A stretch of 64,000 nt of DNA from Escherichia phage vB_EcoM_ASO2A. Under the pieces are notes generated by a model. It was not told the DNA's origin and ran no database searches. It was given only the letters and a program-made list of their open reading frames with translations. The stretch lies in sequence record MZ726793.1, one strand, 5' to 3'. Shown in pieces: positions 48,500 through 61,941 of the stretch (positions are counted from its first letter, which is position 1; every line of letters starts with the position of its first letter). The position numbers and the translations under genes are program-made.

Positions 48500-49459
48500 T
48501 TAGATTCCAATAATAGTTGCTGCTCGTTTATCCTTGGATCTGGTGTTTGCTCTACTACGTGACAAACCGCCGCAAGATTCACAACGAATGATATCGAAAG
48601 AACTTACCGCAGTGTGGTATTGTTTACCAGTAACAACGTGAACGTGATCACTGCCACAACGAGAACAACGGACCTTCTCATCTGGGTAATAAGCGGATAA
48701 GTTAGGATGCTGTGGAATCCACGGAAGGATTTTCATATACAAATCACGGAGTGAAACAACATCACCATCATTGTAAATCTGCATACGTTCAAAAGCATCA
48801 CGATCACCTTCACAACATGCTTTCCATAAAGGGAATCCCTCGTTATCCAGTTTTTCACTTTCTGTTTCGAAATATGCTCCCATTTCTTTAAGGGAGTTGG
48901 AAGGAAGTGCAAATTGTTTCTTAGCTGCCTTCAATGTATCAACAACTACATAATTAGAAGGAGGAGCCATATCGTGATATGCAAATCGTTGGTTAATGTA
49001 TGCACGGTCAAACTTATACCCGTTGTGTGCCACAACTACATCTGCCTCATTCAGAAGGTTCCAAAGATCTTGGCAAAGCTCCCAATCATCTGTATGATCA
49101 ATATCAAAAAGAGGATAAGAAGACAAGTTCTTACCTTCCACTTCACCAGTATACAGGTCAGCAGAAGAGTAAGATAACAAATAACCCCTACGAATTACTT
49201 GATCTGGAGAAATGAAGGCTTTGAATCGACGGAAAGTATATGCAATCTCTGGTGCAGTTTCAACATCAATAATTTTAATAACGGGTTGTTTCTTTTTAAC
49301 TGGCTCTTGTTTACTTGCTCCAAATCGTGCAAGGAAATCGTTCACTGTGCTTTTTCTTGTTGGACTACCTAAAACAATTGCTGCAATATTACGAGAAGAC
49401 ATACCCTCTGCACTCATACTAAGGATATCTGCTTTCTGCTCTTCTGTTAATCTGCTCAC
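48500..49459 (-). CDS. DEDDy-type 3'-5' exonuclease (RNase H-like fold) with N-terminal HTH and C-terminal zinc ribbon
   Basis: IIDVETAP (Exo I), VVAHNGYKFD (Exo II), YNDGDV (Exo III), CSRCGS...CESCGG. Confidence 0.65.
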   Translation of the reverse strand: MSRLTEEQKADILSMSAEGMSSRNIAAIVLGSPTRKSTVNDFLARFGASKQEPVKKKQPVIKIIDVETAPEIAYTFRRFKAFISPDQVIRRGYLLSYSSADLYTGEVEGKNLSSYPLFDIDHTDDWELCQDLWNLLNEADVVVAHNGYKFDRAYINQRFAYHDMAPPSNYVVVDTLKAAKKQFALPSNSLKEMGAYFETESEKLDNEGFPLWKACCEGDRDAFERMQIYNDGDVVSLRDLYMKILPWIPQHPNLSAYYPDEKVRCSRCGSDHVHVVTGKQYHTAVSSFDIIRCESCGGLSRSRANTRSKDKRAATIIGI

Positions 49460-50574
49460 TCTGCCTCCTGTTGTGAGATGTATGACTGAAGCATACTCTC
49501 AAATGTTGTATCGTCATTATCCCAGCGTTTCATGTATACCAACTGGAAAATTGTTTCTATCCATTCATCTGTTGTCATATGGACTTCTTCTCCATCCCAA
49601 GAAGTAAAATTAACACCATCTGGGAACCATGAGTAGTAAGTATCTTTAACTGTTTGGAAAAGTTCTGCTTGAGTTTTACAAGCTGAAAGAAGATTAAAAC
49701 AAGTAATATCTCCGAACTTAATATCAAAATCTTGATAAGGTCGGATACTATCTGTTTTATCTCCCATTAGCATCTGATATGCTAACCAGTAACTGCCCCA
49801 ACCTTTAACTTCTTTCTTTTTACCTTTATCTACGATCCATATATCGCCAATAGACTCGTCAATAAGAATTATATCTGGATTTTTAAATACTCCATCCTCT
49901 TTGTAGAAATTAAAAAGGATACTAGGAGTATGTAAACTATCTTTATCTATAGATACTACGATATAAGAAAATTTACCCGTCCTTTTATAATCTTTATAAC
50001 CTTGGAAACCATACTTCTCTAACTCATCATCAGCTTCTATTACAGTAACAACATCACCATTGTGGAACTCCACAAGATAATCTTTGGTTTCTGAAAGCTG
50101 AAGTGGTTTGATATCTAATCGTTCAGATTTATATTCTACAGGCATTTTGAAGGCGTGTCTGAAAGTTTTTCCTACGCCAATAACTCCGCAATATTTTTCT
50201 AAACGTAGATGTTTTAGAATACCTAAGACTTTTGTTTTAGCTGCTTGGAAGGTGTGTCCGATATCTTCTGGCGGGTATTGCTTATCAATGATTTCGAACT
50301 CTTCCTTTGTGAAGGGACGTTTGTTTTTGGAGGATCTTTCTGCATTTGTATCTCCTAGCCAACCTCCAATTTTAGTCTTGCTTTTACCCCAAAACTCTGT
50401 CTTATTTTTAAATTCCTTTTGAGCACCTGAAGGGATGTGCTTCGCAATGATTGTTCTTTTCTCTAATGCAGACGCTGCTTGGAAAGCGATCTGATCATAA
50501 TCAATTGCAGCTATTGTTTCTTCATTGACATATAAATGAAGATCTTCAGGTTTAATTAAAATATAACCGCTAAT
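49456..50574 (-). CDS. T7 gp6-like 5'-3' exonuclease (FEN family); no canonical start codon, AUU 50574 proposed
   Basis: The frame is open from 50586 to 49456. The N-terminal AIDYDQIAFQAASA resembles T7 gp6 VMDGDWLVFQAMSA. SIDKD and LMGDKTDSI motifs are present. The first ATG/GTG/TTG is codon 148 (50145). Confidence 0.6.
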   Translation of the reverse strand: MSGYILIKPEDLHLYVNEETIAAIDYDQIAFQAASALEKRTIIAKHIPSGAQKEFKNKTEFWGKSKTKIGGWLGDTNAERSSKNKRPFTKEEFEIIDKQYPPEDIGHTFQAAKTKVLGILKHLRLEKYCGVIGVGKTFRHAFKMPVEYKSERLDIKPLQLSETKDYLVEFHNGDVVTVIEADDELEKYGFQGYKDYKRTGKFSYIVVSIDKDSLHTPSILFNFYKEDGVFKNPDIILIDESIGDIWIVDKGKKKEVKGWGSYWLAYQMLMGDKTDSIRPYQDFDIKFGDITCFNLLSACKTQAELFQTVKDTYYSWFPDGVNFTSWDGEEVHMTTDEWIETIFQLVYMKRWDNDDTTFESMLQSYISQQEAE

Positions 50575-50586
50575 ATTTCCCCCTAG

Positions 50587-50796
50587 TTATTCATCGTCAT
50601 CCTCTGTTGAGAATGTTTTAGTATACGGACATTGACGACTTTTCGGGATTGCTATAACTTCATCTTGGTTAGCGTTAGAATAGTAGCAATATTTTGTATT
50701 GCCATTAACTTCAGAATCAGACAAGATTAAAGTAATTTGACCTGCTGCTACTGTGAAACTAAAAGCTAAAAGAACGACTGTCAGAATCTTTTTCAT
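50587..50796 (-). CDS. small secreted protein with signal peptide (69 aa)
   Basis: SD taggagg; MKKILTVVLLAFSFTVAAG-Q; two Cys. Confidence 0.6.
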   Translation of the reverse strand: MKKILTVVLLAFSFTVAAGQITLILSDSEVNGNTKYCYYSNANQDEVIAIPKSRQCPYTKTFSTEDDDE

Positions 50797-50805
50797 AACG
50801 CCTCC

Positions 50806-50831
50806 TAAAAAGCCTACCTCATTAAGTAGGT
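50806..50831 (-). terminator. Rho-independent terminator
   Basis: minus strand GCCTACCTacttaatgAGGTAGGC + ttttt. Confidence 0.65.
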
Positions 50832-50868
50832 AGGCATAATATCATAACTAATCCCGCAAGTCAAGAAC

Positions 50869-61156: not shown

Positions 61157-61231
61157 GGCCCTGTAGCTCAATGGGAGAGCTGTCGGCTCATAACCGATAG
61201 GTAGCTGGATCGAAACCAGCCAGGGCCACCA
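61157..61231 (+). tRNA. tRNA-Met (CAT), CCA encoded
   Basis: acceptor GGCCCTG/CAGGGCC, anticodon loop CTCATAA, T arm GCTGG-ATCGAAA-CCAGC. Confidence 0.85.
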
Positions 61232-61853: not shown

Positions 61854-61941
61854 GGTGAGTTAATTCCGTAGGGGTAGCGGGGCAGACTGTAAATCTGTTA
61901 TCATTGCGATTCGGGTGGTTCGACTCCATCACTCACCACCA
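61854..61941 (+). tRNA. tRNA-Tyr (GTA), type II
   Basis: acceptor GGTGAGT/ACTCACC, A73, GCAGA-CTGTAAA-TCTGT as in E. coli tRNA-Tyr; D-arm junction atypical. Confidence 0.8.

Follow-up and report, generated by a model that had tools for sequence, protein, structure and literature searches.

Where does translation begin in a gene whose reading frame is open for more than a hundred codons ahead of its first canonical start? This question is raised by a putative 5'-3' exonuclease gene of Escherichia phage vB_EcoM_ASO2A (MZ726793.1), of which we analyzed a stretch of 64,000 nucleotides (here called the window). As the original prediction had it, the frame lies on the minus strand and has 376 open codons, from 50586 to 49459, ending in a TGA at 49458-49456; it is directly preceded by an in-frame TAA at 50589-50587, and its first ATG, GTG, or TTG is codon 148 (ATG, 50145-50143). 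Comparison with related sequences leads us to conclude that the gene very probably encodes a 372-residue flap endonuclease (FEN)/5'-3' exonuclease translated from an AUU at 50574, presumably with a low output of the nuclease. Codons are counted here from the opening of the frame and residues from this ATT; the coordinates of all features are collected in Table 1.

The frame stands out within the window. Given the window's own composition, the probability of 147 codons without a stop was ~4e-5, and given its codon usage, the probability that 143 coding codons would contain no ATG, GTG, or TTG was ~3e-4. Of the stop-to-stop frames in the window, 71 ran to 120 codons or more, and 5 of these had more than 40 codons ahead of the first canonical start. 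The nuclease frame was by far the longest of the five. The other four were short and either overlapped longer frames or opposed the local gene direction, and we presume that they are noncoding.

The codons ahead of the ATG encode protein that belongs to the FEN core. The protein matched PHROG 107 ("exonuclease," phrog_107) over residues 14 to 371 (E = 8e-56), and its N-terminal part alone did so with an E value of 5e-7. Moreover, the translated DNA of >900 phage records aligned over at least 80% of the nuclease frame. Against 12 relatives, the N-terminal codons had a nonsynonymous divergence (pN) of 0.09 to 0.29 at a saturated synonymous divergence (pS) of 0.65 to 0.88. In an alignment of 64 sequences, D25 and D27 were near-invariant, and R139, Y148, K149, E180, D182, D183, D210, K211, D212, D272, and D275 were invariant. 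By motif likeness to the T5 and Taq enzymes, we take D25, D27, E180, D182, D183, D210, D212, D272, and D275 to be the acids of a two-metal active site. An AlphaFold model built from the same alignment was a single globular domain (predicted local distance difference test score [pLDDT], 96.3; predicted template modeling score [pTM], 0.90) with the FEN fold of the PIN-like 5'-3' exonuclease superfamily (Pfam PF02739 and PF01367). It begins with a short strand (residues 5 to 7), a helix (9 to 14), a strand (16 to 25), and a further helix (26 to 37), and the first 10 residues have a mean pLDDT of 87. The conserved acidic residues, as assigned by motif likeness, include one on the first strand, as in the FEN superfamily.

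It is important to note that the likeness to known families is low. The window nuclease had no Pfam match at all, the gathering threshold of PF02739 not being reached; this profile matched 16 of the 64 family members, with E values up to 1.7e-6 and 26 to 28 bits against a cutoff of 34.3, at profile positions ~30 to 145. Searches of Pfam, NCBIfam, and PDB sequences with the single protein returned nothing useful, and a family-profile search of PDB sequences returned nothing relevant, so that a fold comparison was needed. The original prediction had called the enzyme T7 gp6-like and its upstream codons the catalytic N terminus of a FEN enzyme. The second of these claims agrees with the PHROG 107 match, the pN and pS values, the invariant residues, and the model. 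The first stood at the level of the superfamily, since hhalign aligned the nuclease to T7 gp6 with a probability of 88.9% (E = 2.4e-6) over window residues 130 to 280 only (the central 124 columns); the N-terminal motif quoted in its favor does align, but the first 143 residues gave no significant BLASTP match to T7 gp6 (E = 5.4). The nuclease thus appears from its sequence to be a divergent FEN branch that is recognized by PHROG 107, and a FEN-type 5'-3' nuclease with the 147 upstream codons in its catalytic core is the assignment that these results support.

These results also bear on the start given in public annotation. The Phapecoctavirus records that we inspected start the gene at Met-148, which is indeed the first canonical start, and one could suppose that only the resulting 229-residue product is made, the 147 codons upstream being a relic that is not translated. 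However, the first strand and its aspartates, the insertion, the long helix at residues 105 to 123, and R139 would all be missing from this product, which therefore cannot be the enzyme. The N-terminal codons that hold the near-invariant D25 and D27 and the invariant R139 are under strong purifying selection, Met-148 falls within the FRH..YK..R motif, and the model places the first strand and helix in the FEN core. Further, no Met marks an equivalent functional boundary in relatives, whose first canonical codons are scattered between codons 6 and 196 after the start. We consider it highly improbable that Met-148 is the only start.

Conserved coding sequence thus extends upstream of every canonical start, in a frame that is closed just upstream by the TAA. 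The region in between reads TAA-CT-AGGGGG-AAAT-ATT-AGC-GGT-TAT, and the ATT codons of the frame near its opening are codons 5 (50574), 9, and 11. The Shine-Dalgarno (SD) sequence AGGGGG lies at a functional distance from the first of these; among the strong SD sites of this phage, the spacer of 4 nucleotides found here was the commonest (19/64), followed by 5 nucleotides (16/64). A strong SD followed by ATT, ATC, or ATA without an immediate canonical start was found in the window at the nuclease site only. We also looked at other window genes in which an SD precedes ATT, ATC, or ATA, and in all 6 matches an ATG or GTG followed immediately. No RNA structure was evident around the start in a 126-nucleotide fold (z = -0.31). 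Several in-frame ATT, ATC, or ATA codons follow the ATT at 50574, and translation might begin at one of them (for instance, ATT codons 9 and 11 or ATA codon 25). Yet these downstream codons are at least 16 nucleotides from the SD, and residues 2 to 8 (SGYILIK) are conserved as amino acids while their codons change synonymously or within the Ser family, which argues that they are translated; the confidently modeled first 10 residues speak against it as well. A start at one of these codons is therefore very unlikely.

The choice of the ATT at 50574 was examined among relatives with homologous DNA from GenBank phages, IMG/VR, and Logan/ENA assemblies. For each locus (numbered with the prefix L), we picked, from the in-frame ATG, GTG, TTG, ATT, ATC, ATA, and CTG codons close to where the frame opens, the one with the most favorable anti-SD duplex. 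A protein identity of at least 50% was found for 38 loci, which formed 20 clusters at 95% nucleotide identity. The codon picked was near-cognate in 38/38 loci; it stood behind AGGAGG, AGGGGG, or TGGAGG (duplex, -9.3 to -12.9 kcal/mol; spacer, 4 to 5 nucleotides), and the frame opened 0 to 10 codons upstream of it. By cluster, the codon at the start site was ATT in 11, ATC in 5, ATA in 3, and CTG in 1, and in none was it canonical, so that the SD and a near-cognate start codon are conserved in 20/20 clusters. The original prediction had named the AUU at 50574 behind AGGGGG as the best noncanonical start and had pointed to an ATG at the equivalent position in related phages as a check. The comparison with relatives bears out the position, and no cluster at or above 50% identity has a canonical start at the homologous codon. 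AUU itself is the codon here but not throughout the clade, where AUU, AUC, AUA, or CUG is found.

Three observations show, as far as sequences can, that the homologous codon is the start and not an internal isoleucine. In L013 and L040, an in-frame TAA stands directly before ATC, and the frame opens exactly at the homologous codon. The proteins of L048 and L049 are 92% identical and have ATA and CTG, respectively, at the start codon, which is a nonsynonymous difference. Finally, codon 2 (Ser) alternates between AGC and TCT or TCA, so that protein-level constraint begins at codon 2. The apparent Gly-Gly upstream is simply the SD read as codons. The long start-free N terminus was not in itself a conserved trait: L047 has 196 codons, and L017 and L031 have 143 codons, without ATG, GTG, or TTG, and the other loci have one within 6 to 45 codons.

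Several points weigh against translation from the AUU. Its support is comparative throughout. Part of the codon pattern, taken alone, would fit a conserved internal isoleucine, and it is the opening in L013, the ATA/CTG pair, and the lack of an upstream start that alone oppose this. In addition, the lineages are related, and the count of clusters without ATG therefore overstates the number of independent observations; with ~10 independent lineages, we estimate a P value of only ~0.1 under neutral drift at the third position.

An error of sequencing or assembly might have deleted a canonical start or created an indel, and the original prediction had recommended that the assembly be checked. We found the 1.6-kb region to be 100% identical to that of Escherichia phage MRostami-2023b and 99.9% identical to that of phAPEC8 (Stephanstirmvirinae, Phapecoctavirus); the window is phAPEC8-like Phapecoctavirus DNA. 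The region is shared, at 95% identity or above, by 64 independent phage records, and the same ATT is present in those inspected (phAPEC8, iGC_PHA_EC001, and one IMG/VR contig). The same architecture recurs in 20 diverged lineages, from isolates as well as metagenomes. An error at this site is thus excluded for practical purposes, and we give it virtually no chance.

All five GenBank/RefSeq records whose annotation we inspected give a truncated gene, which would encode a catalytically dead fragment. In phAPEC8 (GenBank and RefSeq), iGC_PHA_EC001, and Ro121lw, only the 229-residue product from Met-148 is annotated, as "putative exonuclease" or "RNaseH." In the Justusliebigvirus phages ECGD1 and UAB_1, the gene is annotated from a GTG 28 codons past the ATT (codon 33), and the IDYD motif (Asp25/Asp27) is lost. 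The Phapecoctavirus records listed by tblastn with the N-terminal 143 residues (identity of at least 98.6%) leave this stretch unannotated in most cases and call it "hypothetical protein" in two. Judging by these listed matches, the same error seems to be widespread, and ~130 public Stephanstirmvirinae records carry the nuclease gene. Gene callers limited to ATG, GTG, and TTG will go on producing this truncation. An ATG-initiated open reading frame (ORF) of 40 codons lies in another frame within the N-terminal region (50223-50345, minus strand) and is annotated as "hypothetical protein" in phAPEC8 and Ro121lw; we take it to be spurious, a by-product of the missed nuclease start. Correct boundaries are needed wherever the nuclease is to be cloned or deleted, for instance in studies of defense system triggers or in phage engineering.

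The small ORF upstream of the nuclease offers two further ways in which the frame might be translated. The original prediction had noted that the upstream stop is in the nuclease frame and had suggested termination-reinitiation. The in-frame stop is present in the window, but the upstream stop is out of the nuclease frame in 5/14 relatives, and a conserved, fixed frame relation between the two ORFs was not found among them. Coupling itself is plausible: measured on the sequences of 14 relatives, the upstream ORF ends 8 to 21 nucleotides before the near-cognate start, even in loci with a different gene upstream (L023, a 34-codon ORF; L033, a methyltransferase). In reporters, moreover, the output from AUU was about twofold higher at an infC-type junction than in a comparable single-cistron construct (PMC3592434). 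Initiation at the AUU mainly by SD-assisted reinitiation after the 69-codon ORF would be a variant of the reading proposed here and would not exclude it. However, phage genes are tightly packed in general, which makes proximity weak evidence, and de novo initiation calls for just such a very strong SD with the commonest spacer; in L034, no stop cluster lies closer than ~35 nucleotides upstream. We regard predominant reinitiation as possible but rather unlikely. In L023, the 34-codon ORF (597-701) is an extra hydrophobic ORF between the signal-peptide-like ORF and the nuclease, and it ends 15 nucleotides before the ATT.

Readthrough of the stop, or a frameshift, could instead yield the nuclease as a fusion with the small upstream protein, and the in-frame TAA of the window would allow this. 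Since the in-frame stop is not conserved, readthrough or fusion is not the mechanism: beyond the 5/14 relatives with another frame, there are two in-frame stops in L013 and a different upstream gene in L023 and L033. A signal-peptide-like leader on a DNA nuclease would also make little sense. A 444-residue fusion protein (P0005) is found in the protein database, but L017, the locus returned for it, does not yield P0005 on translation and carries a TAG at the position of a Gln in the protein. In all likelihood, the entry arose by gene calling with a recoded-stop table that decodes TAG as Gln, and it is a caution for fusions derived from databases. We consider a fusion extremely unlikely.

Translation from the AUU could proceed as follows. 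The AGGGGG would position the 30S subunit at the AUU, where the initiator formylmethionyl-tRNA (fMet-tRNA) would pair with a mismatch at the third position, and ribosomes coupled from the upstream ORF, which ends 12 nucleotides before, may add to initiation. The protein would then begin Met-Ser-Gly-Tyr-Ile-Leu-Ile-Lys, with the N-terminal peptide (M)SGYILIKPEDLHLYVNEE. AUU, AUC, AUA, and CUG form the near-cognate class, which initiates at 1 to 2% of the level of AUG in Escherichia coli, and Met has been found at the N terminus of a protein started at AUC (bioRxiv 10.1101/063800). AUU reporters gave an output 6- to 8-fold below that of AUG (PMC3592434), and raised levels of initiation factor 3 (IF3) inhibit noncanonical starts (PMC2268962). 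As near-cognate starts are weak and discriminated against by IF3, output is expected to be low despite the strong ribosome-binding site. The combination of a strong SD with a weak near-cognate codon would hold down the amount of a potentially harmful nuclease, and selection appears to keep the codon weak; in the Stephanstirmvirinae-like clade, it drifts among AUU, AUC, AUA, and CUG and never reaches a canonical codon. We found no earlier report of an AUU start for this nuclease, or of any other AUU start in a phage, in the open-access literature, to which the search was limited.

More distant relatives start the gene differently. At 37 to 43% identity (Vequintavirinae and allies), a canonical start stands at the homologous position, directly before Gly/Ala/Ser-Tyr-Pro. 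Among 15 distinct sequences of this type (loci L052 to L072), the start was TTG in 7, ATG in 6, and GTG in 2. The 77 genes of the window have ATG in 62, GTG in 12, and TTG in 3, and TTG is thus enriched in the Vequintavirinae-type nuclease (7/15 versus 3/77; Fisher P = 7e-5). Although the lineages are related, the near-cognate drift without ATG and the excess of TTG in these sister lineages suggest that weak initiation is selected for. In still more distant lineages (Nankokuvirus RP7, Barbavirus, and ICP1), annotation that looked split came down to ordinary ATG or GTG starts.

A weak start could also act as a timer or sensor, such that translation would track a relaxed proofreading of the start codon and thereby gate a DNA-degrading enzyme. 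We hold this to be unlikely. By one speculative route, IF3 could fall relative to ribosomes after host shutoff; by another, an initiator-like tRNA of the phage (63091-63169, plus strand) could compete at initiation. This tRNA(CAT), one of two in the tRNA cluster, has the initiator hallmarks of an A1.C72 mismatch, A11:U24, and a TTCAAAT T-loop, without the three consecutive anticodon-stem G:C pairs. IF3 checks these three pairs. The best match of the tRNA (54/79) is to E. coli tRNA-fMet. It is annotated as tRNA-fMet in one BASEL phage record and is conserved in Phapecoctavirus and Justusliebigvirus. Because such tRNAs occur in many unrelated phages, it is not specific to the clade, and we did not use it as support. 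The other tRNA(CAT) of the window (61157-61231, plus strand) has a normal G1:C72 pair and resembles E. coli ileX (the lysidine-modified tRNA-Ile2 that reads AUA), at 58/76 identity. An eleventh tRNA (61854-61938, plus strand; Rfam, 39 bits) was not reported by ARAGORN.

The order of genes around the nuclease (RdgC, small ORF, nuclease, and RNase_H_2-type exonuclease) is kept in relatives. The GTGA overlap at 49456-49459, between the nuclease and the gene downstream, is a typical coupled junction. The promoter-like site (near-consensus, sigma-70-like) and the terminator-like hairpin at 50812-50864 probably mark the boundary of a transcription unit. Transcripts from upstream would stop at the hairpin, and those from the promoter itself would start inside the hairpin and escape. 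A similar promoter- and terminator-like layout is visible in L012 and L013.

Table 1. Features of the nuclease locus in the window (all on the minus strand)
Feature	Position	Strand	Remarks
FEN (5'-3' exonuclease) gene, redefined	49456..50574	-	372 codons, ATT (50574-50572) to TGA (49458-49456)
Candidate initiation codon ATT (AUU)	50572..50574	-	best anti-SD duplex among in-frame candidates; homologous codon never canonical
SD sequence AGGGGG	50579..50584	-	4-nucleotide spacer AAAT (50578-50575); duplex with 16S rRNA 3' end, -9.3 kcal/mol
N-terminal codons 2-143	50146..50571	-	first strand and helix with Asp25/Asp27 (50502-50494), insertion, long helix, Arg139 of FRH..YK..R; from conserved columns, pN/pS, and model
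Met-148 ATG (residue 144 counted from ATT)	50143..50145	-	annotated start; within TFRHAFK-M-PVEYKSER, flanked by invariant R139, Y148, and K149
Upstream 69-codon ORF	50587..50796	-	small protein with hydrophobic signal-peptide-like N terminus (phrog_4641); TAA 12 nucleotides before ATT
Downstream 3'-5' exonuclease-like gene (RNase_H_2 fold)	48500..49459	-	GTG start overlaps nuclease TGA as GTGA; AGGAGG and 4-nucleotide spacer ahead
Promoter-like TTGACT-17-TATTAT, extended TG	50864-50836	-	consensus scan only; upstream of small ORF
Terminator-like hairpin and T-run	50835-50812	-	abuts promoter-like site; one relative's record annotates a terminator in the region

If the nuclease does start at the AUU, it would be a third natural near-cognate start after the two confirmed in E. 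coli, deeply conserved and in a coliphage. The wandering of its start codon among exactly four near-cognate codons would then be an evolutionary readout of selection for weak initiation, and the gene would offer a convenient system for the study of IF3 discrimination during infection.

Compared with known flap endonucleases, namely, T5 D15 exonuclease, T4 RNase H, E. coli ExoIX, mycobacterial FenA, and T7 gp6, the phage nuclease has ~100 additional residues and carries an insertion behind the first strand and helix. The likeness to these enzymes is too low for Pfam and PDB sequence searches from a single protein, and the link to T7 gp6 was made by profile only. The orthologues with a canonical start in Vequintavirinae and relatives (rV5-like, PVP-SE1-like, Ro1, and Kashira) share a Gly-Tyr-Pro-type beginning behind a strong SD but differ in that they are annotated at full length.

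As a start site, the AUU is well supported by the comparison of sequences as a rare near-cognate case of the infC/pcnB type, deeply conserved in its clade. The only confirmed AUU starts in E. coli are those of infC and pcnB (bioRxiv 10.1101/063800). In infC (IF3) and pcnB [poly(A) polymerase], as in the nuclease gene, the AUU stands behind a functional SD. The nuclease differs from both in being a phage gene known here from sequence, and its codon varies among AUU, AUC, AUA, and CUG within the clade; in infC, the AUU is constant. The gene shows no sign of an autoregulatory loop, unlike infC, because its product is a nuclease and not an initiation factor. The infC gene shares with it an upstream cistron that ends a few nucleotides before the start. 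In pcnB, translation is limited by the inefficient start codon and the product is harmful in excess, and the same effect would be expected for the nuclease.

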